A stretch of 46,733 nucleotides of DNA from a virus. Lineage: Duplodnaviria; Heunggongvirae; Uroviricota; Caudoviricetes. The stretch is taken from IMG/VR virus record IMGVR_UViG_3300006139_000008. One strand, written 5' to 3'. The notes beneath the pieces were generated by a model, which had not been told where the DNA came from, ran no database searches, and saw only the letters and a program-made list of their open reading frames with translations. The position numbers and the translations under genes were made by a program. Of the stretch, positions 6,721 through 37,911 are shown in pieces (the first letter of the stretch is position 1; each line of letters begins with the position of its first letter).

Positions 6721-8076
6721 TTGCAAAATTTTATAGAAGAGCTGGCAAAATATGGGTTAACTCAAGAAACATATGAAGCAGCATGTAATGATATTGATAT
6801 GAAACAGGACGGTTCAGTTGATCTTGATTGGTCTGAAATAACTCAAAAGCATGGTATCAAACTGAATCCAGATAGTGTACGTAAGGCTAACGGCACTCCT
6901 TTTGGAGGAACATTTAGAACTGCATATTTCAAAAATAAATCCATATCATCTTCTATCACAGATACCGAAAAAGCAAAATCTGCTTATAAATCAGAACAAT
7001 CCATTAATAAAGACGGAACATATACGAGCAATAAATTAATTTCCATAACACAGGATGAATTGAAAAATCCTGTCAGTTTATTAGAGGCACATGGATTTGA
7101 TATAAAAGACTGGGAACTTGTTTCTGCAAGAAACAATATCTGGAATGTTTACAGCAAACAAGATGGTATTCAGGAATTATACTCCAGCAAGATTGTTGTA
7201 AAACCAAAAGAACAAACTATAGATTATGATAGGATTAATGAATGGTTTAATAAACTTGATAGAACGTATTCACTCCCAGCTTTAAAAACATCTGATGGGT
7301 ATCTAAACGGAAATAAATGTTTGTTGATTGATATCGCAGATTTGCATTTAAATTTACAAGCAACTATGTTTTCTACAGGTAATGAATATAACTGTGAAAT
7401 TGCAGAAAAATTATTCTTTTATGTTATAGAAGATATTCTTTCAAGAGTGGAAAAGTATAATTTTAACAAAATTATTTTCTGTATCGGAGGAGATATGTTA
7501 AATGGTGACAGCATTTCAGGTTCTACCACCAAAGGAACTCCCCAAGACAGTGATTTGTTATACTTTGACGCAACTGAAAAATTGTATGCAATGACTATTA
7601 AAGCTATTGATATTTTAAAACAAAAAGCACCAGTTGATGTTATATATATCAGTGGAAACCACGATCAATTATCAAGTTACAAGCTCGCTAAATTTATAGA
7701 AGCTTGGTACAGGAATGATAAAAATGTAATTGTAGATTACTCCCCTCTTCCAAGGAAATATATTAAATTTGGAAGAACATTATTTGCATTTGCCCATGAT
7801 GGAAATATTAAAACGCTTCCAAGATTAATTGCGGATGAAGCAAGAGAATATTGGAGTGATATTGACACTACTGAAGTATTTTTACAGCATTTACATACAG
7901 AACAGGTGTTGACAGAAGAATACAATATGAGAATACAAAGATTACCTACTATTTCTGCAAAAAGCGATTGGACTGTAAATAAGGGATTTGGAAGTAAGAG
8001 ACAGTGTAAAACTTTCATTTTTGATATTGAAGATGGACTGACTGATGTTTTGTATACACCTATTAAAAATATATAA
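6721..8076 (+). CDS. Calcineurin-like metallophosphoesterase (YonJ-like)
   Basis: DLH (IADLHL), GGD, GNHD, HDG and HLH metal-binding motifs in canonical order. Confidence 0.85.
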   Translation: MQNFIEELAKYGLTQETYEAACNDIDMKQDGSVDLDWSEITQKHGIKLNPDSVRKANGTPFGGTFRTAYFKNKSISSSITDTEKAKSAYKSEQSINKDGTYTSNKLISITQDELKNPVSLLEAHGFDIKDWELVSARNNIWNVYSKQDGIQELYSSKIVVKPKEQTIDYDRINEWFNKLDRTYSLPALKTSDGYLNGNKCLLIDIADLHLNLQATMFSTGNEYNCEIAEKLFFYVIEDILSRVEKYNFNKIIFCIGGDMLNGDSISGSTTKGTPQDSDLLYFDATEKLYAMTIKAIDILKQKAPVDVIYISGNHDQLSSYKLAKFIEAWYRNDKNVIVDYSPLPRKYIKFGRTLFAFAHDGNIKTLPRLIADEAREYWSDIDTTEVFLQHLHTEQVLTEEYNMRIQRLPTISAKSDWTVNKGFGSKRQCKTFIFDIEDGLTDVLYTPIKNI

Positions 8077-8102
8077 TTTGAAAAGAAAGGAATTTCGAAA
8101 AA

Positions 8103-8378
8103 ATGAAGAAAATTGATATTGTAAATAAACTTATGGAATTACGTGACACCAATAAGAAAGATTGTACTGAAATTGTTGACCAGGTAATTGACATTATGAA
8201 AAATGGTGTTAAGGAAGATGGCGAGCTGGATATTTTCGGATTTTTAAAAATCACAAAAGCCCACAAAGATGCTGGCACGGCCAGGAACCCACGGACTGGG
8301 GAAACAGTTGATGTTCCAGAGAAGAATGTTCCAAAGGTAAAATTCTCAAAGACTTTTAAAGATTTTTTGAATGAGTAA
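8103..8378 (+). CDS. hup: HU/IHF-family DNA-binding protein
   Basis: GFLKI...ARNPRTGETVDVP...PKVKFSK signature; 91 aa. Confidence 0.93.
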   Translation: MKKIDIVNKLMELRDTNKKDCTEIVDQVIDIMKNGVKEDGELDIFGFLKITKAHKDAGTARNPRTGETVDVPEKNVPKVKFSKTFKDFLNE

Positions 8379-9500: not shown

Positions 9501-10535
9501 GTGATAAATGTGGACGGTAAAAATGCAAAACGCAGCGAAGATATAACGGATGAAATGTGGTCAGAAGTTTTGGAATTTAATAGAAATATGGTTCAAGAAT
9601 ATTTAGATAATCAGACTGAACTTGCTGCAAAATCAAAAATTGCTTACAAATCTGGATTACGAATATTTTTCTATTGGGTTAAACAAAATCTTAACAATAA
9701 AAGTTTTCTTGACATAAAAAAGAAAGAATATGTAAGATATCTGAATTGGATTACAAACAGAGGCTTATCTGATTCTGCTATCAAATTTAAAAAGTCAAGT
9801 GTTAGCTCATTTTGTAATTATGTAATGATGATGTATGAAGAGGAATATCCTACGTTCCGCAATTTCACAGTCGGATTAAAAGTAGTAAAAACGGGAAATG
9901 TATACCCAAAAGAACCGCTTACGCCAGATGAATATATTATGCTCTGTGAAGAATTAGAGAAACGTGAAGAATGGCAAAAATTAGCTTACTTGGTTTTTAC
10001 ATATTCAACTGGATGTAGACGTGCCGAATCAAGACAACTTTTAAAAGAAGTTATTGATTATCCAGCTAAAGAGAGAAAAATTAAAATTGTTGATGAAGAT
10101 GGAAATGAAAAAGAGGCAATTTCAAAATCTTATCAAACTCATATAATTCGTTGCAAAGGTGCATCCGTTGTTGGTAAGCCAAGAAAACTGAAATTTGGCG
10201 AAGATGCTATGTCATGGATGAAAAAATGGTTAGAAGTTCGTGGTGAAGATGATTGTCCCTATATGTTTGTCGTAAAATATAAAAATGGTAAAACTAGACA
10301 AGTAGGTGAAGGTACTTTTAATGGTTGGTGTGAAAAATTATTTGCAAAAATCATTGGGAGACGCTGCCATCCACATCAGTTCCGAGAATCGCGCGCAACT
10401 AACTTAGTAGTTTACGAACATAAATCTGCTGAGGTTGCACAAAAATTGTTAGGTCATAATGATGTAAGTACCACCAAGAATCATTATATTATTCGCAATG
10501 ATGAAATTGACGAATCTGATGAAGCATTTGTCTAA
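9501..10535 (+). CDS. Tyrosine recombinase/integrase-family protein
   Basis: TGCRRAE (Arg), HPHQFRES (H-x-x-R), LLGH...TTKNHY (His, catalytic Tyr); N-terminal core-binding domain. Confidence 0.92.
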   Translation: MINVDGKNAKRSEDITDEMWSEVLEFNRNMVQEYLDNQTELAAKSKIAYKSGLRIFFYWVKQNLNNKSFLDIKKKEYVRYLNWITNRGLSDSAIKFKKSSVSSFCNYVMMMYEEEYPTFRNFTVGLKVVKTGNVYPKEPLTPDEYIMLCEELEKREEWQKLAYLVFTYSTGCRRAESRQLLKEVIDYPAKERKIKIVDEDGNEKEAISKSYQTHIIRCKGASVVGKPRKLKFGEDAMSWMKKWLEVRGEDDCPYMFVVKYKNGKTRQVGEGTFNGWCEKLFAKIIGRRCHPHQFRESRATNLVVYEHKSAEVAQKLLGHNDVSTTKNHYIIRNDEIDESDEAFV

Positions 10536-10565
10536 TCAATAAATCTCCAATTTCATTGTAAATAA

Positions 10566-10600
10566 AAAGAGAGGGATCACACGGAATCCCTCTTTATAAA
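10566..10600. terminator. Probable bidirectional terminator between convergent genes
   Basis: AGAGGGAT-CACACGGA-ATCCCTCT with A/T-rich flanks. Confidence 0.6.
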
Positions 10601-10867
10601 TTTTGCTATACGTAAAATTTTATTTAATTTAGACTTTTTATTGGTTTTTACTCCTGATTTTTCTATATTGTTTTTATATTCTTTTAAGTTTTCATTATAA
10701 GTTTTAGCCTTGTCCAATGTCAATTCATTATACTTATCTATCGACTTGAATTTGCGTTTATCATGACACATGTACGCTATAAATATAAGCACAAATGCTG
10801 TCAGTACCACAAATGCTATTATAGCTATTGCAAGTAATGTATTTACATTAATATTTATTCCAAACAT
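10577..10867 (-). CDS. Single-TM membrane protein with basic C-terminal tail (moron-like)
   Basis: Hydrophobic stretch LLAIAIIAFVVLTAFVLIFIAY; GAGGTG SD upstream; antisense to the phage operon. Confidence 0.7.
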   Translation of the reverse strand: MFGININVNTLLAIAIIAFVVLTAFVLIFIAYMCHDKRKFKSIDKYNELTLDKAKTYNENLKEYKNNIEKSGVKTNKKSKLNKILRIAKFIKRDSV

Positions 10868-11392
10868 AAAAACACCTCACATTCAATTCTGTTAATTCAT
10901 TTGAAAGTGAGGATTTTAAATGAGTACATTTTCACTAACAAAAGAATTAACAAAAACAATTATATAAGTCAAAAAACATCCTTAAAATTTGAAGTAAAAA
11001 TAATAAGCTAAAATCAAATTAAAAAAATTGACAAATATAAGTTTTGAAAATTCTTGCTAGTGAAAATTCACCTCTTTAATTATAAAAGCAAGAAATAAAT
11101 ATTATTAAATATTATAACAAAACACTTATATGTATTAATTTTGAATTATTAAATATATCAATTGTATATTTAAAAACAAACATTATCTATATAAAACACA
11201 TTATAAACAAATATTACCAGCTTGTCAATATTATATTATATATTTTATACAATTTATCGACAGGTAGTAAATAGTAATGACCGAAACTATAAGAGGTTGA
11301 GAAGTCCGTGTCCATCTGCGTTAATGATGATATCTAGTAGAGTTTTTACTATTCTATATTTTTTTTATAAAGCAATTAAGGTGGTGAATATT

Positions 11393-11665
11393 ATGCAGCA
11401 GCTTAATTTAGATTATTTTCAGCTTCAGCTAGGAGAAGTACGTACCATATCTAAGGATTCTGGACAGACTGTTGAATCTGTAGAACTGCTTCTTGGTGAT
11501 CAAACAAAAGCAGAAATGAGAATAAATGAAGATTCAAATATAATGAATTTAGTAGTTCGTGATACAGTATTATCAGATATTCCGCAATTACAATGTGCCG
11601 TAAATAAGGAAACTTTACGGGATTTTATTGTAGGACTCACAAATTTATATAATATGTTAAGTTAG
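11393..11665 (+). CDS. Hypothetical protein (90 aa from ATG 11393)
   Basis: AAGGTGGTGA SD before ATG 11393; the track start at 11222 lies in AT-rich intergenic DNA. Confidence 0.65.
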   Translation: MQQLNLDYFQLQLGEVRTISKDSGQTVESVELLLGDQTKAEMRINEDSNIMNLVVRDTVLSDIPQLQCAVNKETLRDFIVGLTNLYNMLS

Positions 11666-11675
11666 GAGGAGAAGA

Positions 11676-12125
11676 ATGCAGCTAACAACAGATATTGACA
11701 TTGATGGTGGTGTTGTTATTGCAAGTGTAAAATGCACCGACATTAGTGATGAAACAAAAGAAGCACTACACGATTATACTAAGTTGCTAAGATATGGAGA
11801 TATTGATTTCTGTGCAAAAATTAAAGTAACTAATAGTATGCCAGAGATTGTAGACGATGATGATCCGGATGGTGAAGAAGTCAGAATCGGACTTATTGAC
11901 AAGTCTTTTGTCGTAGATGAAAATCTGAATCTTGAGTTGAAACTAGACAGCAATAAAATGTCTAGTAAGGAACTAACGTCTTCTATTGCTAATGTAGAAA
12001 TTCTGAGCAAGGCAAAAGCTATTATTTGGATTGATAAAGTTAAGGGCGAAATCCAGAAACTTGTAGATGCAGCCAGAGAACAGAACGCAGCTAATATTGA
12101 AGGTACTGTTGAAGAAATTATTTGA
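11676..12125 (+). CDS. Hypothetical acidic protein (149 aa)
   Basis: AGGAG SD; operonic spacing. Confidence 0.7.
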   Translation: MQLTTDIDIDGGVVIASVKCTDISDETKEALHDYTKLLRYGDIDFCAKIKVTNSMPEIVDDDDPDGEEVRIGLIDKSFVVDENLNLELKLDSNKMSSKELTSSIANVEILSKAKAIIWIDKVKGEIQKLVDAAREQNAANIEGTVEEII

Positions 12126-12142
12126 GAAAGGAAATATCAGTG

Positions 12143-12445
12143 ATGTTTAGAATCTTAATTCAAGACGAAAAAGACAAACAAAAGTGGAATTATTTAAAAA
12201 TCAAGAAAGAAGACACAAAAACTGAAACAGAAGAAGTTGAAGATCCTGATACACATGAAATGAAAACCATAACAACAGAGGTTGGGCTTGGTACATATTC
12301 AAGTGTAATTTATGAAGAATCTGATCCTGTTGAATATGAAAAGAAATGTGTAGAACTTTTAAAGACATACAATCTTTCACAGTTAAATTTTGTTGATGTG
12401 AAAGAATACGGCGTTGATTTCTTATGGGATTTAGACAATGAATAA
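12143..12445 (+). CDS. Hypothetical acidic protein
   Basis: AAAGGA SD before ATG 12143; followed by hairpin GGGAGAATAG...CTACTCTCCC. Confidence 0.7.
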   Translation: MFRILIQDEKDKQKWNYLKIKKEDTKTETEEVEDPDTHEMKTITTEVGLGTYSSVIYEESDPVEYEKKCVELLKTYNLSQLNFVDVKEYGVDFLWDLDNE

Positions 12446-12749
12446 TGCTAACTGGGAGAATAGTAACGTGCTACTCTCCCACTAATATCTTTGAAAAGTA
12501 AACCTACTCGGTATATGACTCCGCTATTAACGGATGTGTTCTGAAAGGAATGAAGTTCGATTGTTCTGCTTTGCATTTATGGAATGGACATAACAGAACG
12601 TATGCTGATGAAAAAGGGATGGTCAAATGTGTTTTGCAATATTTCTCATGGATATTAGTTGTTGTTAAAATATCAAAATAAAATATTGTATCATGATGTA
12701 TGGTCTTAAACAGATTTATGTAGCATGATAAATTAAACATTTCATTGGG

Positions 12750-13739
12750 TTAAATGTTGGTTATTATATTGTCCTGAAATTTCAATTCACCTATTTCAAT
12801 TTCTCCAATAAAGTTCTTTACAAAATTAGGTCTTATGACAAAGCATATTTCTGAGATATCCTTTAAATATTTCTGAGGCATACTATCATATGTTATTGGA
12901 ATAACAATTTCTTCATAATCCTTACCTATAGTGAATGTTTGTTCGTAAAATTTAAACAAATTATCACCACACTTAAATTCAATTGTTATCTTTTGAATAG
13001 ATTCGTTTTCACTTCTGCATTTGCAATAAAATATACTATTAGGGGTTATAGTACTCCAATCCTTATGTGGTACAAACTGATAAACACAACTAATAAAATT
13101 ACTTGGAATAGGGTAAAAATCATTTGCTTTAAAATTACAATACATTTTATGAAAACTGTTATCTGATTCTAGTCTTACCGCATCTGGATCACCATTTTGC
13201 GCCACACAAATAATATTTGCATCTCTAAAATTAAATCCATAATTTTCACTTACATATATTTTAACATTTTCTGTAAACTGTTTTATTTTATCAAACAATT
13301 CATGCTCTTGCATAAAATTTAATCTTGGAATTATTTGCTTTTCTACTAACTTATATTCATAGAGTTTTTTGAATAAATCTTCTGCATCAATTAATATGAT
13401 ACTTTGTATTATCTTTAATGGAGTATCATTTAAAACGCCATAATCTAACGGTGGTACAATAATTGGGAAAATATTATCTTTAAATGCCCAGGCAGCACCC
13501 ATTTCCATAATACAAAATTTACTGTTAATATAATTTTGTGTAATTAGAAAAATTACAATTTCTGAATCGTGAAGATTATCTTTGATACTCTTAATAAAAT
13601 CCTCACCAACTCTTAACGCATTATCCATAGATGTACAAAATATCTCATCATAATCAATATGAAATCCTTGTGTAAGCAAATCAACAAACATCAGCACTAA
13701 ATCTCTATCTTTTGAAGAATGACTTATAAAAATTTTCAT
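12750..13739 (-). CDS. TIR-domain protein with C-terminal beta-rich, carbohydrate-binding-like domain (start ATG 13739)
   Basis: MKIFISHSSKD...IVIFLITQNYINSKFCIMEMGAAW is a TIR fold with the conserved Glu; GAAAGGA SD; TG-TTATAAT promoter-like sequence upstream. Confidence 0.8.
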   Translation of the reverse strand: MKIFISHSSKDRDLVLMFVDLLTQGFHIDYDEIFCTSMDNALRVGEDFIKSIKDNLHDSEIVIFLITQNYINSKFCIMEMGAAWAFKDNIFPIIVPPLDYGVLNDTPLKIIQSIILIDAEDLFKKLYEYKLVEKQIIPRLNFMQEHELFDKIKQFTENVKIYVSENYGFNFRDANIICVAQNGDPDAVRLESDNSFHKMYCNFKANDFYPIPSNFISCVYQFVPHKDWSTITPNSIFYCKCRSENESIQKITIEFKCGDNLFKFYEQTFTIGKDYEEIVIPITYDSMPQKYLKDISEICFVIRPNFVKNFIGEIEIGELKFQDNIITNI

Positions 13740-13908
13740 CAGTTTATTCCTTTCATAATTAATATTTAAATTATAACACACAATGGATATATTTTCCATT
13801 ACAAAGTCGTCATTTATGTCGACTCTTTTTGTATTTTCGCCATTTCATACAGGGTAATTACTACCCTCTCCTGCCTTGAATGAATTGTTTCATTGGCAAA
13901 ATTATAAA

Positions 13909-14505
13909 CTAACTATGTCCATCGGAATTACGTTTACCATGAAGAAAGACTAAATATAATATTGTCAATATAAAACATGAAATAAATAGAATCGAATTCA
14001 ACAGTAAGAGGAAATTAAACTTTAATGTTATATACTCAATTACAATTTTGTAACATATAATCAAACAATAAATAATAGGAAATACCCATTTATATAATAT
14101 ATCGACAAAATCACTCATTTTAGGATAATTTGATAAATAATTTCCGCTTTCTCTATCAAATGTTATGTGTTCAATGTTTGATATATCTGATTCTATTGAA
14201 TGAATGCAATTATATTGTTTTTCTATATGTATAGTTGCTTGATAATATCTCATTGTCAAATACAATAGTATTAGCCATAAGAAACTTTGTATTATAGACA
14301 TTTGATTTGATATATCAATCTCATATTGTTTTTGAACAATACCTATAATTAAATATGAAATACTATCTGGTGATAATGCAAATAAAAATTGTAAAGTCAT
14401 CACAAGAAAAACCATTACAAAGAAACGATTTCTTTGAATAATGGTTTCTTTTATTATAGAAAATGTCTCTTTGTAATGGTCATATAGCAACTCTGTTTTA
14501 TCCAT
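13909..14505 (-). CDS. Multi-pass (~4 TM) membrane protein, putative defence effector
   Basis: Four hydrophobic segments; starts 5 nt after the stop of the upstream TIR gene. Confidence 0.7.
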   Translation of the reverse strand: MDKTELLYDHYKETFSIIKETIIQRNRFFVMVFLVMTLQFLFALSPDSISYLIIGIVQKQYEIDISNQMSIIQSFLWLILLYLTMRYYQATIHIEKQYNCIHSIESDISNIEHITFDRESGNYLSNYPKMSDFVDILYKWVFPIIYCLIICYKIVIEYITLKFNFLLLLNSILFISCFILTILYLVFLHGKRNSDGHS

Positions 14506-14510
14506 AATAT

Positions 14511-14936
14511 TTATGCTTCATTCAATGCCTTAATAATTGCATCCTGCGTAAAACTCATTGCCCATTTAGCTCCTGCCCCCATTAACTCATCTGGAGACTC
14601 ATATGACTTATCTATTTTTACAGCAACAAGTTTATTTTTGTGTTCTTTACTTTTTGCGATTTCAAAGTTAATCCAATTTTTATATCCTATAGCAACATGA
14701 TCTTTGTGCTGTGTATTCGCTTCTTTCCCAACGATCACAAGCGTATATGTAGTAGTATTGATGCGTCTTGTTAAACCAGCTTTAATGGTTGGAATATTAT
14801 TACTTTGAATTTCGTCCGAAGAACAATCATTAAAAACGAAATCCATATTCTTATTTGCGTCCCATGCATCTAAAAGAAATTTATAGTGCTTATCGTTAGT
14901 ATAATCGAATGATACAAATACTTTTTTCTTAGCCAT
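14511..14936 (-). CDS. thsB: ThsB-like TIR protein (DUF1863/MTH538-like)
   Basis: KKVFVSFDY...D...LVIVG...WINFEI...LVAV pattern typical of Thoeris ThsB TIR domains, with the conserved Glu. Confidence 0.75.
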   Translation of the reverse strand: MAKKKVFVSFDYTNDKHYKFLLDAWDANKNMDFVFNDCSSDEIQSNNIPTIKAGLTRRINTTTYTLVIVGKEANTQHKDHVAIGYKNWINFEIAKSKEHKNKLVAVKIDKSYESPDELMGAGAKWAMSFTQDAIIKALNEA

Positions 14937-15046
14937 GTATATATAGCCCCTTTCTTTTCAAATTATATTTTTAATCTTACTACCATATTTAGTATAAGTC
15001 AATAATAATTTGGCATAATATGGTATATATTTGGAGGTATTGTTAC

Positions 15047-15175
15047 ATGAAATGTAAACACGAATGGGCTGAATTAAATCGTTATTATTATTTAGATTAT
15101 AATGGTTATAGAGTTCTAAAAATAACATATCATTGCAAAAAATGTAACAAGAAAGAAATTAAAAAGTATTTTTAA
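15047..15175 (+). CDS. Small putative Zn-finger protein (42 aa)
   Basis: Not in track. GGAGGT SD; MKCKHEW...YHCKKCNKKEIKKYF (CxH...CxxC). Confidence 0.65.
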   Translation: MKCKHEWAELNRYYYLDYNGYRVLKITYHCKKCNKKEIKKYF

Positions 15176-15184
15176 AATATTTCA

Positions 15185-15257
15185 CTGGATATAGGACAAT
15201 TGGTAGTCTGCTGGTTTTGGGAACCAGAAGTTGTAGATTCGAGTCCTGCTATTCAGA
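15185..15257 (+). tRNA. tRNA-Pro (anticodon TGG)
   Basis: CTGGATA/TATTCAG acceptor, CTGGT-TTTGGGA-ACCAG anticodon arm, TTCGAGT T-loop. Confidence 0.85.
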
Positions 15258-15261
15258 TTTC

Positions 15262-24310: not shown

Positions 24311-24338
24311 AGTATAGAGATTAAAAGGAGTGATTATT

Positions 24339-25760
24339 ATGCCAAAAAGAAAAACACACGAAGAATATATTAATAATCTTATTCAAAATAATATTTCTTT
24401 ACGTCCAATTGAGCCTTATATAAACTCAGGAACGCCTATATTACATAAATGTTTAGATTGCGGGACAATTCGTAAGTACATTCCAAATGATATACTTAGA
24501 CGAAAACACTGTATTATATGTCAAGGTAGTGATGTAGTTGTAGAATATGGAATAAATTCTCTTTGGGATACAAACCCAGAAATTGCTGAAATGTTAGAAT
24601 ACAAGGAAACTGGAAAAATTTATTCGTATAAATCAACAAAAAAATTAAATTTTATTTGTCCTAATTGTAATTCATTAGTAAAAAATAAGCAAATTCAATA
24701 CGTTGTAAAGCATGGACTTCCTTGTCAAAAATGTTCAGATGGAATTAGTTACCCTATGAAATTTGTAACATGTATGTTTAATCAATTAAATGTAAATTAC
24801 GACACTGAAGTTGTATTTAATAATTGGACATTTGACTTTCATGGACGAGATTATAAACCTAGATATGATATAGTTTTCAACAAGTATATTGTGGAAGTTG
24901 ATGGTGCTATACATATAAAGAAACACTCAAAAAGTGCAATTCCGATTGAAGATATTAAATATATAGATTTCAATAAAGATCAACTGGCAAGCAAAAATGG
25001 GTACGAGATGATACGTATTGACTGTTATAACAGTAATCAGGACTATATATGTAATAACATACTAAATTCCAAATTAAATGATATTTTTGATTTATCAAAA
25101 ATTGATTGGTCAGAATGTCATAAATATGCAATATCATCTAAAGTAAAAGAAGTATGTGATTATTGGAATAAACTAGAAACTCCATCTGTAACACAAGTTT
25201 TTACTGATTTAAAAATGCCTAGGATTACTGTTCAAAGATGGTTAAAGCAAGGTTCTTTAATTGGGATGTGCGATTATAATGCCTATGAAGAAAGTGTTAA
25301 AAATAGTAGAAAATCAGAAACAAAAAGCAGACGAAAAGTAATATGTATGAATACAAATATAGTATACGACTCAATCAAAGATGCAAGTAAAAGTAACAAT
25401 ATTTCGGACAGTTGCATTATTGGTGCATGTTCTAAAAAAATCAAATATGCTGGCAAAAATAAAATAACTGGCGAAAAATTATCTTGGATGTATTATGATG
25501 AGTATTTAAAAGCATCAAAAGAAGAAATACAATCTAAACTTGATAATATTTATCATAGTTCGTGTAAAAAAGTTATTTGTTTAAATACCAAAGAAGTTTT
25601 CAATTCTCTAATTGATGCTATGAGAAAATATAATGTTAAAAGTGGTATGAGTAGAGCCTGTAGAAATCAAAAGCGGTTTTGCGGCAGACATCCAATTACA
25701 AGTGAGCCTTTACGCTGGATGTATTACGAAGATTACATTAGAGAAAAGAAGGTGGTATAA
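24339..25760 (+). CDS. Free-standing homing-endonuclease-like protein (Zn ribbons, Vsr/DUF559-like nuclease, two NUMOD1-like repeats)
   Basis: CxxC pairs; YDIV...IVEVDGAIH nuclease motif; two KVICxNT...F/YxS..xA...AC repeats. Confidence 0.75.
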   Translation: MPKRKTHEEYINNLIQNNISLRPIEPYINSGTPILHKCLDCGTIRKYIPNDILRRKHCIICQGSDVVVEYGINSLWDTNPEIAEMLEYKETGKIYSYKSTKKLNFICPNCNSLVKNKQIQYVVKHGLPCQKCSDGISYPMKFVTCMFNQLNVNYDTEVVFNNWTFDFHGRDYKPRYDIVFNKYIVEVDGAIHIKKHSKSAIPIEDIKYIDFNKDQLASKNGYEMIRIDCYNSNQDYICNNILNSKLNDIFDLSKIDWSECHKYAISSKVKEVCDYWNKLETPSVTQVFTDLKMPRITVQRWLKQGSLIGMCDYNAYEESVKNSRKSETKSRRKVICMNTNIVYDSIKDASKSNNISDSCIIGACSKKIKYAGKNKITGEKLSWMYYDEYLKASKEEIQSKLDNIYHSSCKKVICLNTKEVFNSLIDAMRKYNVKSGMSRACRNQKRFCGRHPITSEPLRWMYYEDYIREKKVV

Positions 25761-30334: not shown

Positions 30335-30883
30335 ATGAAAATTGCATTAACAGTTGGCCACTCTTTATTAAAGAATGGATGCTATACCAGTGCTGACGGG
30401 AAAACATACGGTGGCTGCAATGAATATAAATGGTGCAAGGCATTTTCGAAACAGCTGGCATCCGCCCTAAAAAAGAACGGACATAAGGTGGAGAGAATCG
30501 TATGCCCTGAAAAAAAGTTTTCCTGCAGTACACAGGAAAAAAGTTATAAGTTGAATTTAATTAATCGCAACAATTATGATCTTGTAATAGAACTGCATCT
30601 AAATGCAGCTTCCCCATCTGCAAAAGGAACTGAAGTTTTATATAAATCTCCTACAGGCAAAAAGTTTGCAAAAAATATACAAAATCAGTTATCTTCTGTA
30701 TTTTATAATAGGGGTATTAAGAAACGTATAGATTTATATATCCTTAATGGGACAAAACCACCAGCAATTTTAATTGAAACATTTTTCTGTACTAATAAAA
30801 ACGACTATGCAAAAGCGAAAGGTCTTGTAAAGAGAAAGAAAATTGCAAAACTAATTGCGGATGGAATCGAAAATACAATCTAA
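30335..30883 (+). CDS. N-acetylmuramoyl-L-alanine amidase (Amidase_3) endolysin, catalytic domain only
   Basis: LTVGH, E (NEY), IELHLNA, GTEV, ILIETFF motifs. Confidence 0.88.
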   Translation: MKIALTVGHSLLKNGCYTSADGKTYGGCNEYKWCKAFSKQLASALKKNGHKVERIVCPEKKFSCSTQEKSYKLNLINRNNYDLVIELHLNAASPSAKGTEVLYKSPTGKKFAKNIQNQLSSVFYNRGIKKRIDLYILNGTKPPAILIETFFCTNKNDYAKAKGLVKRKKIAKLIADGIENTI

Positions 30884-30907
30884 GAAAGGAAATGGCACTT
30901 ACATCCA

Positions 30908-31417
30908 ATGGATAGTATCACAGCATTAACCAGAATTGATTACACTTCTGTTTTTATTTCCGTCTTTATAATACTAATTGGTATTAAAGCGATTGTTTCA
31001 CTTTTTGAATGGGTAATTGATAAGCTTGGGGTTGAGACAAAATGGATGAGAAAACAACGTGAAGAACATGAATTGTTGATACAAACTTCTCAAAACTTAA
31101 CCGCCTTACAAGAAAGACATGTACATGATATGCATATATCTGATAAACGCGACGAAGAAATTTCTTCTGATATCAAAAAACTTACCAGAATGTTTGTAGA
31201 TAAAGAAATCGACGATATGCGCTGGGAAATCAATAATTTTGCAACCAAGGTATCAGAAGGGAGACCATGCAATAAAGACAGTTTTAAACATTGTATCCAT
31301 ACATATGAAAAATATGAAAAAATATTGGAGGAAAACGGTCTTGAAAATGGTGAAGTCGAAATATCAATGGAATTAATCAATGATGTGTACAAACAAAAAT
31401 TAAAAGAAGGATTTTAG
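30908..31417 (+). CDS. Membrane-anchored coiled-coil protein (lysis-associated?)
   Basis: N-terminal TM (VFISVFIILIGIKAIVSLF) followed by a charged helical domain. Confidence 0.55.
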   Translation: MDSITALTRIDYTSVFISVFIILIGIKAIVSLFEWVIDKLGVETKWMRKQREEHELLIQTSQNLTALQERHVHDMHISDKRDEEISSDIKKLTRMFVDKEIDDMRWEINNFATKVSEGRPCNKDSFKHCIHTYEKYEKILEENGLENGEVEISMELINDVYKQKLKEGF

Positions 31418-31515
31418 AAGTAATTAGCAAAAAAATACTAATATTTTGCAATAAAAGACCACTATCATAACGAAATGCTCTTTTATTTATTTTTCATAAA
31501 AAGGCGGTGATTAAT

Positions 31516-31848
31516 ATAGCATACTGGATTCAGGAAACAGGAACATATCATAATTATACCAATTATAGAAAATTTATGTGTGATTATCTATCTGATATTA
31601 GAAAACTTCCGAGAGTAGGTATTGAAGGAGAAAAACAGAAAAACGATACTGTGTCATCATCTCCGTGCGCTCATGGAAGTGAATGTATCTGTTTAGAAAA
31701 TTCAACTACATGGATTTTAAGCAAAGACACAAATACATGGACACAATACTCAGCAAGTACTGGTAATAGCGGTAGCGGAGGAGGAACTGTCATAGAAAAA
31801 CCACAAAGAATTACCAAAGATGATATTGATTCACTTTTTAACAGTTAG
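31516..31848 (+). CDS. Hypothetical protein; start probably ATA 31516 (track GTG lies inside the SD)
   Basis: AAGGCGGTGA at 31501-31510. Confidence 0.55.
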   Translation: MAYWIQETGTYHNYTNYRKFMCDYLSDIRKLPRVGIEGEKQKNDTVSSSPCAHGSECICLENSTTWILSKDTNTWTQYSASTGNSGSGGGTVIEKPQRITKDDIDSLFNS

Positions 31849-31862
31849 GTGGTGATGTTTTT

Positions 31863-32120
31863 ATGGAAGATAAAGTATTATATATGGAGGAATTTACTTA
31901 TTATGATAAAAAAATAAAAGAATTAATTTCTTCTAAAAGCAAAAATGTAGTACAAAAACAAAATTATCTACTATTCCCTTCCGTTGGTAATTCAAATTTA
32001 TTTTATATTGATATAGAAAACAATTCCATTTACAGGTGGGACGACACTGGAATGAAATATTTTTGCATTGGTAAAAATTACGAAAATATAGATATTATAT
32101 CTGGTGGATCGAGTAAATAA
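31863..32120 (+). CDS. Hypothetical tail-associated protein (85 aa)
   Basis: AGGTGGTGA SD; FPSVGNSNLFYID motif reminiscent of fibre-associated proteins. Confidence 0.6.
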   Translation: MEDKVLYMEEFTYYDKKIKELISSKSKNVVQKQNYLLFPSVGNSNLFYIDIENNSIYRWDDTGMKYFCIGKNYENIDIISGGSSK

Positions 32121-32189
32121 AAAATAACCTAACTAATCTTCCACTATTTCCTATAGTGGAGTTATTATTTATAAAGGAGAATTCTTTAA

Positions 32190-33125
32190 ATGGGAAATAC
32201 CAATACTAACACATTAAGTACAAGAATTTTAATCTGCAACGACACAGAGGTAAATTGGGGTGCATCTACAAAAGTCTTACTTAAAGGAGAGATGGGAATT
32301 CTTTTCCCAACAGATGCAACAAAAGAGCCAATATTTAAAGTAGGTGACGGAGTCAATACTTTTAATAATCTTAAGCAGGCGAATGTACGACTATCAGAAT
32401 TAAAAGAATTATCTGATAGAATTGGCGATTTGACTACTTTAAAGACAACTGATAAGACAAATATTGTCGCTTCCATTAATGAATTAGTAGACTCAATTAA
32501 ATCTGCCGGAAAAGTAACAATTGATACCAGTAAAACCACAGATGGATATGCAAAGTCGTATACCGTAAAGCAGGGCGTTGACAGCGACGGAAAAGATATC
32601 GTAATCGGTGTAATTGATATACCAAAGGATATGTTTGTAAGTGCAGCAGAAGTTATTGAGTTAAATGATACATCTGTCCTCCCGTCCGGAGTAACTGAAA
32701 CAGGGACTTACATTGAGTTAACTATTGCAAATTCAGCCAATGATAAAGTATATATTAATGTAAATAAACTTGCGAACATTTATAAAGCGAAGGCAAATGC
32801 AGCACAGATCCAGCTTGCTATTGACCCGTCTACAATGGAAATATCTGCATCAATCGTAAATGGTTCTGTTAGTTCTGACGCATTAGCCGATGATGCTGTT
32901 ATTACAAGTAAGATTAAAGATGGTAATGTAACAAAGGCAAAACTTGAGCAGGGTGTACAGGACTCTTTGGATAAAGCGGATGCTGCTGTTACTGATGTAA
33001 AAGTAAATGGAACTGTACTGGCAAAAGATGCTTCAAATGCCGTAAATATTGAGGAAATCCCTACAGATATTTTGAAAAATGGAGAAAATACCCTTATTTT
33101 AGATGGCGGCACAAGTTCAATATAA
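32190..33125 (+). CDS. Tail fibre/baseplate-associated protein with Mtd-N-like N-terminus
   Basis: WGASTKVLLKGEMGI...FKVGDGVNTFNNL; LTTLKTTDKTNIVASINEL fibre repeat. Confidence 0.65.
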   Translation: MGNTNTNTLSTRILICNDTEVNWGASTKVLLKGEMGILFPTDATKEPIFKVGDGVNTFNNLKQANVRLSELKELSDRIGDLTTLKTTDKTNIVASINELVDSIKSAGKVTIDTSKTTDGYAKSYTVKQGVDSDGKDIVIGVIDIPKDMFVSAAEVIELNDTSVLPSGVTETGTYIELTIANSANDKVYINVNKLANIYKAKANAAQIQLAIDPSTMEISASIVNGSVSSDALADDAVITSKIKDGNVTKAKLEQGVQDSLDKADAAVTDVKVNGTVLAKDASNAVNIEEIPTDILKNGENTLILDGGTSSI

Positions 33126-33138
33126 TAGGTGTGATAAA

Positions 33139-34845
33139 ATGGAACAAACAATTTTAGTAAAGCATAAACAGGCATATGATACAGAAGAAAACTGGAAAGC
33201 CAATAATCCTATATTATTAGCTGGACAGCTTGCATATTCCTCTGATAAATATGGTAAATATAAAGTTGGCGATGGTGTAACAAATTGGAATGATTTGGAA
33301 TACTGTAACGAAAAAGTATTTACTGGTACAAGAGAAGAATATGAAACTGCTAATAAAAATGGAGAAATTAAACCAGGCACAATCGTAAATATTACAGATG
33401 ACAATGATTATCAGGATATAAATATTGATACAGAATTATCGGAGGAAAGTGAAAATCTCGTAACTAATAAGACGGTTACAAAAGGTATTAAATACAACGA
33501 TACCAAAGACAATACAGTTACTTTTACTTCTAACGATACTTTAGAACCTCCAGCATACTCAGATGTGTCATTATTAGAAAGTAATGAAAAACACTCTTCT
33601 ATATTCAATAAAATATCTACCATGTTTAAAAATATACGCTATCTGTCTGGATTGCTTGGGACACAAGATATCTCTTCTATCGGTGAAGGAACAGTAACCA
33701 GTGCAATTAACACAATAAATACTAATTTACTAAAAAAGGAAACACTGCTCGCAAAGGGGCATGCAAACAGCGTATCTAATGATTTAAATTTAATAAAAGA
33801 GAGCGGAATATATGTAATTGGAAGCACTAGCGAATATACTAACCTCCCTCCAGAGCTTTCTAGCGAAGCATATTGTGCGCTGGTTGTGTTTAACAGCGGC
33901 ATTTATATCGTGCAGGAAATTTTCATTCCGTTTGATACAAAAGGAACTATTTATTACAGGTTTAGAACGGAACGAGAGGACGGGTGGAAGAGCTGGAAGA
34001 CATTTGGCGAAATATACGACGGCTACGACGAAACGAGAAAGGGGTTTGCAGCGGATGCAACACAGTTGAACAAAGAGGTGGAAGGGAGTTATGCAGCAGG
34101 GGTGGCGGAGGAAATCTCTGGGATAAACGCCAATTTAAACCAGAGATTGAAAGTTCCTAGAAATGCACAAAATTTAGATGATGGCCCCGGTATTAATACT
34201 TTGACAATAAAAGAGCAAGGCCCATATTCCGAAAATATTCCCGAAGAAAACTGGTTCCATGCGATTAGGTCGCAGGGAGATGACGCTAATTATCAAGTAC
34301 AGCTATTACTTGGAATGACAAGTAATAATATGTATTTTAGGAATATGCAGAATGGGGGCTGGAAACCTTGGGATAGAATACTAAAAAATAGTGATTTGTC
34401 AACCATCATCCCACAAGTTTTTAAGTATGCCACCGCCAGACAGCCTATATTTGTCATAAGTACAAGTAGTGAAGACAAGATGTACATTACTAATACCAAT
34501 GACAGGGGGTGCAAAAGGAACAGTTCCGAAAAAGCATTAATATTCAAATGCACGTATGATTCAGGCGGTTATGTCGGATATGGATTGATTTCAAAGACCA
34601 GAGAAGGTGCTTTGTGCACATCACTTCACCAATACGGTGAAATGCATGAACCAATCAAACTTACCACGCCAAAAGGGCACAATGCATACTTTTCTGGTAT
34701 GAAGTATCAAGTTTCATACAGTGCAACAGTTATTGCAGTTGTCGGAGGCACCACAAGTAACATTACGGAACTTTCTTTTGATTACTATGATAAAATGAAT
34801 GGGATGTTTTTCATATTATCAATGGTGGATTACTACATACTTTAA
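33139..34845 (+). CDS. Tail fibre / receptor-binding protein with switchable C-terminus (orientation A, 568 aa)
   Basis: WKANNPILLAGQL...YKVGDGVTNWNDL N-terminus; knob-like repeats (DLNLIKESGIY...W..W); contains the left 36-bp inverted repeat in frame. Confidence 0.75.
   Translation: MEQTILVKHKQAYDTEENWKANNPILLAGQLAYSSDKYGKYKVGDGVTNWNDLEYCNEKVFTGTREEYETANKNGEIKPGTIVNITDDNDYQDINIDTELSEESENLVTNKTVTKGIKYNDTKDNTVTFTSNDTLEPPAYSDVSLLESNEKHSSIFNKISTMFKNIRYLSGLLGTQDISSIGEGTVTSAINTINTNLLKKETLLAKGHANSVSNDLNLIKESGIYVIGSTSEYTNLPPELSSEAYCALVVFNSGIYIVQEIFIPFDTKGTIYYRFRTEREDGWKSWKTFGEIYDGYDETRKGFAADATQLNKEVEGSYAAGVAEEISGINANLNQRLKVPRNAQNLDDGPGINTLTIKEQGPYSENIPEENWFHAIRSQGDDANYQVQLLLGMTSNNMYFRNMQNGGWKPWDRILKNSDLSTIIPQVFKYATARQPIFVISTSSEDKMYITNTNDRGCKRNSSEKALIFKCTYDSGGYVGYGLISKTREGALCTSLHQYGEMHEPIKLTTPKGHNAYFSGMKYQVSYSATVIAVVGGTTSNITELSFDYYDKMNGMFFILSMVDYYIL
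34114..34149 (+). repeat. Left 36-bp inverted repeat (putative recombination site)
   Basis: ATCTCTGGGATAAACGCCAATTTAAACCAGAGATTG is the exact reverse complement of 35351-35386. Confidence 0.95.
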
Positions 34846-35350
34846 ATTAATTTATCGGAATAAGCGTTATTTCAGAAATAGAAAGATAAACCGTATTGTA
34901 ATCAAGTTCATCGCCATGGTATAGGCCGAAGCTTATCCTCTCCTCTCCTTTATCTGAAATATTGACGCATGTTTCAAAATATGTTTCTGTGTCCGTCTCA
35001 GCAAGCAGTTCCCATGACGAATAGTCATACGGGACACTTTCCTCTGGAACAGGAGCATCTCCTGCCAGAAAATAACAGCGTACAGTAAGATTGGAAGAGC
35101 TGTCGCTGCTAATATAACCTTTTATTAAAATTCCTGTATAAGCTCTAAAGTCAGTAATGCCTTTAGTTACTATAATCCCAGAATCAACATGCCCCTCGCC
35201 ATTTATGCTATATGATTTTCCGATACCGAAGTGTTGCATTCCATTAATTTCAATAGAGCGATAAAAGCAATTATAGTAATTGAATGAATACATTTCCTTA
35301 GACGCACCAAGGTACCACCCTTTACATGCAATTAACAACACTTTTTGTGG
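34150..35350. mobile_element. Putative invertible tail-fibre cassette (~1.2 kb)
   Basis: Bounded by perfect inverted repeats; holds two convergent alternative 3' gene ends, both in frame with the repeat. Confidence 0.85.
34847..35350 (-). CDS. Silent alternative tail-fibre C-terminus (167 aa, orientation B)
   Basis: Minus-strand frame reads ISGINANLNQRL (the repeat) then PQKVLL...LIPIN*; the same peptide is at the junction in the 33139 ORF. Confidence 0.8.
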   Translation of the reverse strand, partial: PQKVLLIACKGWYLGASKEMYSFNYYNCFYRSIEINGMQHFGIGKSYSINGEGHVDSGIIVTKGITDFRAYTGILIKGYISSDSSSNLTVRCYFLAGDAPVPEESVPYDYSSWELLAETDTETYFETCVNISDKGEERISFGLYHGDELDYNTVYLSISEITLIPIN

Positions 35351-35386
35351 CAATCTCTGGTTTAAATTGGCGTTTATCCCAGAGAT
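35351..35386 (-). repeat. Right 36-bp inverted repeat
   Basis: CAATCTCTGGTTTAAATTGGCGTTTATCCCAGAGAT. Confidence 0.95.
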
Positions 35387-35414
35387 ACATTTAACTAAAA
35401 AAGAGGTATAATAC

Positions 35415-37256
35415 ATGTCAATAAATATACAAACAGAAAATAATGAATTAAAAAAGATTGCAGGGACATACGGAACAAATATTGAAAGTAATATTACTAC
35501 TGATTCTGAATTGTCGCTTGAAAGCAGTAATCCGATACAGAATCAAGCCGTTGCCCAAGGATTAAATACTATTGAAGATACAGTAGGTGCAATAAGGTTA
35601 ACTAAAAAATACATCGGTGAACATAATACCCTATCTTCTTTTATTAATGGGCTGAAGGAAAATACTTGCTATGTTTTTGTCTTAACACATTCAACTTTAT
35701 CAGAAGCACTCACTCTTGCAAACATTGGATTTTTACATCAACAAAGAGAAAACGGTATTCTTAAAATCTCATGTGGTTTTAATAAATATGGTATATTTGT
35801 AGAATTTAGTGATGGTATTAATGATATACAGCAGAGGTCTATCATATATAATCCTAATTATACGGATAATTATGAATTAAATGATTGGCATAGATTTATT
35901 ACTGAAGATGGTTCTGTAAAACATGCGGATACGGCTGAGAATGCAGATACGGTAGATGGATATCATGTAAATGATTCTCCTAGTGCAGATCCACGTGGTA
36001 AAATTCCGATAGTAAAAAGTGATGGCGTAATGGAAGTTGGTAAATATATAGATTTCCATGTATCGACCGCAGATTGGGACAATGATGCCAGGATTACAGC
36101 CGGTTACGATAAAATGGAAATTGATAAACCGATTGAATCTCCGGGCATCAAAACATCTTCCCTTACTGTTAGCAGAAGTTTTTCTGGATACGGCGATCCA
36201 CAATTTGTTGTAGAAAATCCAACTTACCCAAACGCTAAAGTGATTGGATATGTTGACCAAGAAGGCGCAAATTTTAGGTTGCAGTGCAACGAGGGAAATA
36301 ACTACTTCGAATTCGATACTTTAGGAAATAATCTAAGGTTGTACCATTATTACAATGGGGCGACACCAACACTTATATCCTCTGTTGGTTCTGGGAATAA
36401 CTTAGAGCTGCAAATCGCAAGGGCTACTAAAGACAGTGATGGAAATGTGATTAAAAATACGTATTTGAAAAGTGGCAGTAATATTAGTGTTGGCTCAATT
36501 ATCTCTAGTGGGAATTTACAATTAGGTTCTTCAGCAGGCGGAGGACTGGTTTGTCCGAGTTATGGTTCATTATTTCTCACATCTTCATATGGAACTAGTT
36601 CTAGTAAAGGAATTCGAGTGGATTCCGTCACAGTTGACCCATATGATTATGTTTCGCCTACAGTAATTCCTAAAATTAGTTTTGGGCAGAGCGGTAGACC
36701 ATGGAACGGATTTTATTCTTATGTTTCAATGACAACCGTATCCGATAGACGGCAAAAGAAAAATATATATGAAGTTGATTCAAACACAGCATCACAATTA
36801 ATTTCGAAGATTATTCCAGTAACATATCAATTAAAAGACGGCGAATCTGGAAGAACACATTATGGGATGATTTCTCAACAAGTAGAAGAAGTTCTCAATG
36901 AATTAGAGATTGATTCAAAGGATTTTGCAGCTTTTATCAAATCTCCCATTACGGAAGATGTTATGGAGCAAGCTACAAGTGACGAAGGGGAATTGCTATT
37001 TGACGAAGAAAATAACCCAGTCATGATAAAAGTTGGAGAAAATGAGACTGAAGACTTTACTTACATGCTTCGGTATGAAGAATTTATTCCAATTCTATGG
37101 AAAGATGCCCAAGATAAAAATAGAAAAATTGAGCAATTACAAAATTCAAATGAAGAACTTAGCAATAAAGTTGTTAGCTTAGAGGAAAGAATAGAAAAAC
37201 TTGAATCATACATCAATATTAAAGATACAATAGATGCAGAAGGACGGTTTCAATAA
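35415..37256 (+). CDS. Tail fibre/spike with C-terminal intramolecular chaperone (peptidase S74-like) domain
   Basis: SDRRQKKNI...PVTYQLK...HYGMISQQVEEV...LRYEEFIPILWK then a coiled coil. Confidence 0.85.
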   Translation: MSINIQTENNELKKIAGTYGTNIESNITTDSELSLESSNPIQNQAVAQGLNTIEDTVGAIRLTKKYIGEHNTLSSFINGLKENTCYVFVLTHSTLSEALTLANIGFLHQQRENGILKISCGFNKYGIFVEFSDGINDIQQRSIIYNPNYTDNYELNDWHRFITEDGSVKHADTAENADTVDGYHVNDSPSADPRGKIPIVKSDGVMEVGKYIDFHVSTADWDNDARITAGYDKMEIDKPIESPGIKTSSLTVSRSFSGYGDPQFVVENPTYPNAKVIGYVDQEGANFRLQCNEGNNYFEFDTLGNNLRLYHYYNGATPTLISSVGSGNNLELQIARATKDSDGNVIKNTYLKSGSNISVGSIISSGNLQLGSSAGGGLVCPSYGSLFLTSSYGTSSSKGIRVDSVTVDPYDYVSPTVIPKISFGQSGRPWNGFYSYVSMTTVSDRRQKKNIYEVDSNTASQLISKIIPVTYQLKDGESGRTHYGMISQQVEEVLNELEIDSKDFAAFIKSPITEDVMEQATSDEGELLFDEENNPVMIKVGENETEDFTYMLRYEEFIPILWKDAQDKNRKIEQLQNSNEELSNKVVSLEERIEKLESYINIKDTIDAEGRFQ

Positions 37257-37386
37257 TTTGAAGCCGTTCTTTTATTATTAAATACTATTACTTATTAAGG
37301 TTCAGTCAATAAGTAATGGTATTTATGTGGGAGGTGTAAAAGACTGAACTGCTCCTCTCCTACCATTGATGAAATGAGGTGAAAAT

Positions 37387-37911
37387 ATTACAAAAAATAT
37401 AGGAAAAATTTTTGAACAAAACTGGAAAAAATCTATACCTAATAACGTATTTTATTATAGACCACCAGACTCTGCACAAAGTTTTGGAACAAATGAAACT
37501 TTAAGGTTTAGTGCAAAGTCCCCATGTGACTGTTTTATGTTTGATGGGGATTTTCTATATACAATTGAATTAAAATCTGTGGGTACAAAATCTATATCAT
37601 TTGAAAGGGAAAAGACTGATAAAGGTATTATACATAAGCATCAGATAGATAATTTACAGAAATTTTCTACGTATAAAAATATTATCAGTGGATTCATTTT
37701 TGACTTTAGGTTATCTGATAAAACATACTTTTGCGCAATTGATAACCTTTTAAATATGATAGCAATGCTAGATAAAAAATCATTTAATGAAACTGATTTA
37801 ATAAAATGGTGCGATATTATAATGATTAATAAAAGAAAACTCAGAGTAAATTATAGATATGATGTAAATACATTTTTACAGGAAGTGAAGAAAATTAATG
37901 TTTTCCCATGA
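37387..37911 (+). CDS. recU: RecU-like Holliday junction resolvase; apparent ATT start
   Basis: GAGGTGA SD; frame open 50 codons before ATG 37537, supplying GKIFEQ...; SPCDCFMFDG...IELKS nuclease motif; HKHQIDNL. Confidence 0.75.
   Translation: MTKNIGKIFEQNWKKSIPNNVFYYRPPDSAQSFGTNETLRFSAKSPCDCFMFDGDFLYTIELKSVGTKSISFEREKTDKGIIHKHQIDNLQKFSTYKNIISGFIFDFRLSDKTYFCAIDNLLNMIAMLDKKSFNETDLIKWCDIIMINKRKLRVNYRYDVNTFLQEVKKINVFP

Follow-up and report, generated by a model that had tools for sequence, protein, structure and literature searches.

A probable fibre-tip inversion switch with arm-spacer-arm crossover sites and no adjacent recombinase gene in a large gut phage

The phage genome fragment analysed here (IMG/VR record IMGVR_UViG_3300006139_000008, Caudoviricetes; the whole stretch of 46,733 nucleotides is called the window) contains a tail-fibre gene, at positions 33103-34845, whose coding sequence includes one copy of a long inverted repeat. 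The second copy lies at the start of an open reading frame (ORF) on the opposite strand. This arrangement raises the question of whether the DNA between the two copies is inverted, providing the same fibre with alternative tips, and of which enzyme would carry out the exchange. Fibre-tip inversion is a textbook host-range hedge of temperate phages, and all the well-studied cases known to us depend on a serine invertase encoded beside the segment. The source of the window is a large mouse-gut phage, and the window covers only a part of its much larger genome, which was followed along identical public contigs. The locus is, with high probability, a real site-specific inversion switch of the fibre tip. 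The explanation that we favour by some way overall is inversion at tyrosine-type sites by an enzyme acting in trans.

Such a locus would be a natural fibre switch of a large gut Firmicute phage in which a Cre/Xer-type site layout is combined with an unlinked enzyme. It opens two questions, namely which recombinase class drives the switch and how a recombination site co-evolves with the peptide that it encodes. New in this work are a public contig carrying the flipped form, a consensus for the site arms that spans three lineages, and the contrast with the gix site of phage Mu, analysed as a control.

The inverted repeat and the two fibre tips

The standout inverted repeat of the window is 36 nt long and 100% complementary, and its copies, IR-L and IR-R (Table 1), are spaced by 1201 nt. 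Since the repeat is perfect and the bordering sequence is unrelated between the copies, sequence identity ends at the boundary of the dyad. The 34-bp site string occurs only twice in the window even when up to 3 mismatches are allowed, and none of 100 shuffled sequences contained any match. Each copy is a dyad consisting of two 14-bp arms, ATCTCTGGGATAAA and TTTAAACCAGAGAT, which are symmetric at 12 of 14 positions and flank the non-palindromic spacer CGCCAA; this spacer is the same in both copies, in inverted orientation. Dyad symmetry runs one base further on either side, giving 15-bp arms (13/15). From the centre outwards, three asymmetric positions are followed by four symmetric, two asymmetric and nine symmetric ones, and then by three asymmetric positions; thus, symmetry begins 3 bp from the centre and extends to 17-18 bp. 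The initial annotation had described precisely this dyad, with 14-bp arms, 12 of 14 symmetric positions and an asymmetric CGCCAA spacer, and the description holds; moreover, three lineages preserve the layout in their DNA sequence. The remaining dyads of equal quality in the window are intergenic and look like terminator hairpins.

Both copies are in frame in their cassettes and encode ISGINANLNQRL. IR-L sits within the fibre gene, and IR-R is found at the 5' end of the minus-strand ORF 34847-35416. Matches to fibre families of PHROG cover the N-terminus of the 33103-34845 product. The two tips, A and B, meet stop to stop and therefore the segment has space for no other gene. In silico inversion of positions 34150-35350 yields an open, in-frame fibre of 516 aa with an unrelated tip of 167 aa. 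With respect to database records, exact look-ups of the 580-aa fibre, the 189-aa minus-strand ORF product and the 344-aa recombinase described below matched no record, a search for a longer homologue of tip B gave none, and a megablast of the region against GenBank phages gave no match.

In the mechanism proposed here, the two 34-36-bp dyads would serve as crossover sites in a conservative site-specific inversion. Each site would offer two recombinase-binding arms of consensus CTCTG-N3-TAAA, inverted to each other, and the 6-bp asymmetric overlap CGCCAA between the arms would give the site its polarity. We infer that strand exchange takes place in this overlap; the 1201-bp segment would then flip, the sites being mutually inverted. 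Each flip would connect the 337-aa constant shaft in frame with either tip A (232 aa) or tip B (167 aa), and a lysogen population would shed virions of two receptor specificities. The layout would be the one used by simple tyrosine recombinases (Cre/FLP/Xer type), with the enzyme encoded elsewhere and working in trans.

Both orientations and site variants in public assemblies

A contig from the European Nucleotide Archive (ENA), ERZ14864795 NODE_22401 (L065), is 99.5% identical to positions 30370-34149 of the window and then continues into tip B; its final 57 nt match positions 35386-35330 on the minus strand. Because this contig joins the constant part of the fibre to tip B, the flipped form exists in nature, and the inversion assumed by the initial annotation is borne out by its junction. 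The A orientation is found, with 100% identity to the window, in a JGI contig (L059). The flipped junction has been directly observed in one contig only. The inner arm of L065 is TTTATTACAGAGAT, and site positions 25-27 read TTA instead of AAC; this polymorphic triplet would only place the exchange left of site position 25.

The ends of other contigs fall on the same site. Two of them, one without differences from L065 over 3.3 kb of constant region (L061) and another with 2 differences (L067), terminate at site position 24, which directly precedes the triplet that differs between the arm variants (AAC vs TTA). These ends are as expected for a branch of the assembly graph in which a single left junction has two continuations. 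L065 itself stops 21 nt into tip B, where a 55-mer node would stop if the shared sequence began at site position 3, as it does in strains with a right outer arm starting AACTCTG. In addition, a contig of a metagenome-assembled genome at NCBI begins exactly at position 35351. Logan contigs of four runs, inspected over positions 33000-37400, all break at both repeats because their k of 31 is shorter than 36, and they are uninformative on orientation. With its assemblies broken at the site, the phage is usually represented in databases by a truncated fibre gene.

Close relatives with identical 311-aa and 169-aa neighbour proteins carry the same locus in other states. The arms of three lineages (the window, L065 and L062) all fit CTCTG-N3-TAAA; the encoded peptides differ and the middle triplet is variable. 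In L062 and L063, the left site is ATCTCTGGGATAAA-CGCAGA-TTTATTACAGAG and the right site, on the opposite strand, is AACTCTGTAATAAA-CGCCAA-TTTAACCCAGAG. The arm types have exchanged sides and both sites remain dyads, the two spacers are mismatched at 2 of 6 positions, and the minus-strand tip is intact. A common type, represented by L005, has inner arms shortened by 2 nt (CTCTG-C-TAAA) and unequal spacers. Its silent tip is degraded: L006 retains a remnant ORF of 123 aa, and L005 and others have no called gene on the minus strand there. The L005 type thus combines arm deletion, unequal spacers and a degraded tip, indicating that perfect sites accompany intact alternative tips. Relatives with unequal spacers or 2-nt-deleted arms look frozen, and the relatives together present the switch in active-looking, arm-variant and decayed states. 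Judged from sequence comparison, conserved boxes, a free triplet, a polar spacer and decay upon spacer mismatch are what a protein-bound recombination site would predict, and they are unlike what a protein motif or plain homology would predict. In a further relative (L060:1393-4156), the 311-aa protein is directly followed by a 604-aa S74 fibre and the cassette-bearing fibre gene is absent.

Table 1. Features of the fibre cassette and the candidate recombinase in the window
Feature	Position	Strand	Description
Xer-like simple tyrosine recombinase	9501..10535	+	SAM_1 core-binding and catalytic domain; candidate invertase, 23.6 kb from site
Tail-fibre gene, A form	33103..34845	+	580 aa: constant 1-337, site-encoded peptide, 232-aa tip A
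IR-L, left crossover site (putative)	34114..34149	+	Outer arm 34114-34127, spacer CGCCAA 34128-34133, inner arm 34134-34147
Invertible segment (putative)	34150..35350		1201 bp; two convergent fibre tips
Tip A	34150..34845	+	232 aa
Silent alternative tip B ORF	34847..35416	-	189 aa
Tip B, in-segment part	34847..35350	-	167-aa tip after inversion
IR-R, right crossover site (putative)	35351..35386	-	Exact reverse complement of IR-L; on the + strand, inner arm 35353-35366, spacer TTGGCG 35367-35372, outer arm 35373-35386
Second fibre gene	35415..37256	+	613 aa, C-terminal Peptidase_S74 chaperone domain; constant, just beyond IR-R

Enzyme class and candidate enzymes

The organization of the fibre genes is that of classical inversion systems. 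The Mu G segment, P1 Cin/cix, e14 Pin and p15B Min likewise join a constant fibre N-terminus in frame to head-to-head tips, although the Mu segment additionally carries assembly-chaperone genes whereas the segment described here holds tips only. The sites are different. In the Mu G segment, submitted to the same analysis (NC_000929), the repeat is perfect and 34 bp long and its symmetry abuts a 2-bp core: from the centre outwards, one asymmetric position is followed by five symmetric, five asymmetric and two symmetric ones. Mu gix has a 12+2+12 structure, whereas the fibre site has a 6-bp asymmetric centre and arms of 14-15 bp and does not show the 26-bp form of a serine site. The gin gene starts ~55 bp past the right repeat of Mu (NC_000929), and Gin, Hin, Cin and Pin are as a rule encoded beside their segments; in contrast, no Resolvase-domain gene is adjacent to the phage cassette.

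The site resembles those of Cre/loxP, FLP/FRT and XerCD/dif, with which it shares the arm-spacer-arm form and the asymmetric 6-8-bp spacer that gives polarity, and in which inverted sites invert the DNA. The fibre site has two inverted arms within the ~11-15-bp range of simple tyrosine sites and an asymmetric overlap within their 6-8-bp range, identical in both partners. Sites of this class are bound at their arms by the cognate recombinase and cut at staggered positions 6-8 bp apart through a 3'-phosphotyrosyl intermediate. The total length of loxP is 34 bp, equal to that of the fibre site. However, the sequence is unrelated to loxP, FRT or dif, the fibre site lies within coding sequence and also encodes a peptide, and it would serve protein switching, whereas the three known systems act in dimer resolution or copy control. 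The enzyme is somewhat more probably of the tyrosine type than of any other. The tyrosine-type architecture proposed by the initial annotation is thereby upheld in its layout and in its contrast with Mu gix; ORF 9501-10535, one of the possible enzymes that it named, is a candidate only, as discussed below.

Two further systems offer parallels. In the R64/IncI shufflon, the tyrosine recombinase Rci swaps the C-terminal tips of the PilV adhesin in frame, altering recipient specificity (PMC9881135). The shufflon comprises several segments, many asymmetric sfx sites with one conserved arm, and an adjacent rci gene; the phage cassette, in contrast, consists of a single segment with two symmetric sites, and no recombinase gene lies next to it. 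Master invertases encoded far from their target repeats are also described, such as the tyrosine recombinase RecV of Clostridioides difficile and the serine recombinase Mpi of Bacteroides fragilis (PMC5903667). These are bacterial and act mostly on promoter switches, whereas the target in the phage is the coding sequence of a structural gene. By analogy, the switch would be Mu-G-like in function and of the loxP/FRT/dif type in site architecture, its logic would be nearest to the Rci shufflon, and the placement of its enzyme would be RecV/Mpi-like. A literature search found no described phage fibre switch combining these features.

The initial annotation had stated that no recombinase flanks the cassette, in agreement with the content of the neighbouring genes: fibre genes, an amidase, small ORFs and a RecU-like resolvase, none of which carries PF00239. 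In a Pfam scan of every non-overlapping window ORF of at least 150 aa, the sole recombinase was the product of 9501-10535. The window and ~41 kb of flanks (~10 kb to the left, in the near-identical L043, and ~31 kb to the right), ~88 kb altogether, yielded no Resolvase-domain gene, and the same holds for two complete relatives, MT835469.1 (176 kb) and Bacillus phage Tsamsa. To the right of the window lie the rest of the tail module, an attP-like region with TTTGGTA iterons and then, ~26 kb past the window end, a 403-aa lambda-type integrase (Phage_int_SAM_3 and PF00589). The search for further site copies and recombinases that had been suggested for the full genome was thus extended to part of it, yielding no third site in ~100 kb and, in ~88 kb, no Resolvase gene and a second tyrosine recombinase.

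The product of 9501-10535, whose true start is probably GTG 9510 or ATG 9555, matches PF00589 with 66.7 bits (cut-off 27.1) and also PF02899. Its best family matches are far below the NCBIfam equivalog cut-offs (XerC, 85.9 vs 335 bits; XerD, 67.6 vs 330); it is Xer-like in build, neither XerC nor XerD, and its closest solved structures are XerA and XerD. The H-x-x-R motif, the LLGH motif and the tyrosine align to H244, R247, H270 and Y279 of XerD, while the first arginine (in CRRAE) and the lysine come from reading the unaligned sequence by eye. The protein is an intact Xer-like tyrosine recombinase. It shares the two-domain build of Xer and Cre and, because it is devoid of an arm-binding domain, it belongs to the type of enzymes that use simple arm-spacer-arm sites. 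Of the enzymes that can be named, it is the strongest candidate for the invertase, and a doubtful one: a host tyrosine invertase or a further phage enzyme from the remaining genome are, jointly, about as likely. If the Xer-like gene, conserved in this group of giant Firmicute siphoviruses (Tsamsa-like and gut relatives), did encode the invertase, a recombinase with a housekeeping role in the phage would have been recruited to switch host range, working 24 kb in trans on sites that arose within a fibre gene, and this would be the first tail-fibre switch driven by a tyrosine recombinase.

Several observations weigh against inversion at tyrosine-type sites in trans, and particularly against this enzyme as its agent. 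Homologues of the 9501-10535 product with at least 75% identity number more than 1000. A recombinase 87% identical is present in an IMG/VR contig (G001) that has neither the cassette nor a long inverted repeat and whose fibre diverges past residue 75. Identity is 75% in MT835469.1 and 45-47% in Tsamsa-like Bacillus phages (47% in Tsamsa), and neither a consensus-like site at up to 3 mismatches nor a long inverted repeat was found in MT835469.1 and Tsamsa. The product therefore has its conserved role elsewhere, its orthologues live without such sites and, being encoded by a conserved core gene of the giant-siphovirus group, it is a candidate and not a dedicated invertase. With respect to the site, no third copy was found in ~100 kb of the phage, including the vicinity of the recombinase gene. 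A strict site pattern gave no matches in viral contigs, in genomes (185,579 species representatives) or in metagenome contigs; a looser pattern gave none in viral contigs and 43 single matches in metagenome contigs, all of them at least 8 of 34 bases off the site. The layout of the site would by itself be insufficient to prove the enzyme class, and the recombinase inventory covers only part of the phage genome, the host genome lying outside it. Finally, the contig ends that we read as orientation heterogeneity within samples come with low coverage, and a strain mixture is an alternative. Of the inversion in trans put forward by the initial annotation, the non-adjacent enzyme stands; 9501-10535 remains a candidate for that enzyme and is highly conserved in relatives without cassette or site.

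The 43 loose-pattern matches (L069-L111) were rejected as related sites, since they are unrelated palindromes in unrelated, mostly GC-richer contigs. A near-perfect palindrome, CTCTGCG-N-TAAA ... TTTA-N-CGCAGAG, recurs in about 20 of the 43; this element is hairpin-like and unrelated to the phage.

The Xer-like gene shows no association with the cassette, which also speaks for a rather unlikely alternative, in which the prophage segment is inverted by a master tyrosine invertase of the host, RecV-like or of the Xer kind, and the phage supplies the sites only. In C. difficile, RecV inverts several unlinked switches without an adjacent recombinase (PMC5903667). The phage appears to be temperate (attP-like region, integrase, S24 repressor in relatives), so that its prophage would be exposed to host enzymes. 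However, the strict site pattern is present in no other genome among the species representatives searched and, therefore, no host switch with matching arms is known. A serine recombinase from the remaining phage genome or from the host, exchanging at the central 2 bp (CC) of the dyad, is unlikely. Serine invertases drive all the classical cases of fibre-tip inversion (Mu Gin, P1 Cin, e14 Pin), the Mu repeat is likewise 34 bp, and serine recombinase sites are also dyads. Besides, Mpi is a serine invertase acting in trans (PMC5903667), and the inventory of recombinases spans part of the genome only. Nevertheless, the fibre site, whose symmetry begins 3 bp from the centre, is unlike the 12-bp half-site abutting the 2-bp core of Mu gix, and no Resolvase-domain gene was found in the window, its ~41-kb flanks, MT835469.1 or Tsamsa. 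Gin/Cin-type serine invertases are usually encoded beside their segment, and Gin-type inversion requires a Fis-bound enhancer; the cassette has no adjacent invertase gene, whereas adjacency is the rule in Gin-type systems.

It is very unlikely that no dedicated enzyme is involved and that the dyad is incidental, both orientations resulting from rare homology-driven exchange (host RecA, phage annealing proteins) or from a single past event; in a variant of this view, the dyad would be kept as an mRNA hairpin. The dyad does fold as an RNA hairpin (-14.7 kcal/mol, z = -4.8), a single flipped contig was directly observed, and the phage has recombination functions such as the RecU-like resolvase. 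However, the identical block left of the polymorphic triplet in the flipped-junction strain comprises 22-24 nt only, which is short for homologous exchange, and sequence identity stops precisely at the dyad. Moreover, the arms stay dyads in three lineages though the encoded peptides change, several independent contigs terminate at one site position, and a hairpin role would leave unexplained the inverted second copy before a silent, in-frame tip. Least probable of all is that the lambda-type 403-aa integrase inverts the segment as a side reaction. It is the second intact tyrosine recombinase of the phage and is encoded beside the attP-like iteron region, but its putative arm-type iterons (TTTGGTAMAA) do not occur anywhere in the window, and the attP region has no similarity to the fibre-site arms. 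Lambda-type integrases normally require arm sites and have short core-type sites. An attempt to locate the attP core by comparing L023 with L026 failed, as these sequences are too diverged. Tyrosine-type inversion in trans remains the explanation that we prefer for the cassette.

Genes around the recombinase and the cassette

In the vicinity of the recombinase gene, half-sites are at chance level (11 observed vs ~7 expected), and the dyads found there in the window, G001 and MT835469.1 are terminator-like and unlike the fibre site. Directly 3' of the gene, positions 10558-15258 form a 4.7-kb block without homology in G001. This block contains a zinc-finger ORF, three small ORFs, a TIR protein, and a ThsB-like TIR protein paired with a membrane protein. 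It is a cargo hot spot located by a conserved recombinase, whose actual function might be linked to the block.

A perfect 20-nt inverted repeat (8071-8090 / 14949-14968; chance expectation 0.06) lies just upstream of two start codons, those of a 91-aa ORF at 8103 (HU-like, according to the Pfam entry of the corresponding L043 gene) and of the ThsB-like gene on the opposite strand. It resembles a shared -10 box plus ribosome-binding leader and encloses the recombinase and the defence genes. To the left of the window (L043:1-9000), ParB_N, RelA_SpoT and DDE transposase genes are found upstream of the window's first genes; a ParB combined with a Xer-like recombinase would be in keeping with plasmid-like maintenance or with the resolution of multimers. 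In Tsamsa, the recombinase homologue gp227 (NC_023007 130191-131168, L049), annotated as hypothetical, is encoded among virion structural genes, immediately upstream of a 9.4-kb tape measure gene, a context that differs from that of the window.

Within the tail module, the slot after the second fibre gene is occupied by the RecU-like Holliday-junction resolvase (37537-37911) and, in relatives, by an unrelated RusA-like resolvase (L005:6715-7149). This is a non-orthologous swap of one function in an odd place, and the RecU-like gene was discarded as a cassette-linked factor because relatives have the RusA-like gene in the same slot. A lineage-specific ORF of 476 aa (24330-25760), considered as a hidden recombinase, turned out to encode an HNH homing endonuclease instead. 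It is located amid structural genes, where the syntenic region of G001 has 133 bp, and is probably a free-standing homing endonuclease insertion.

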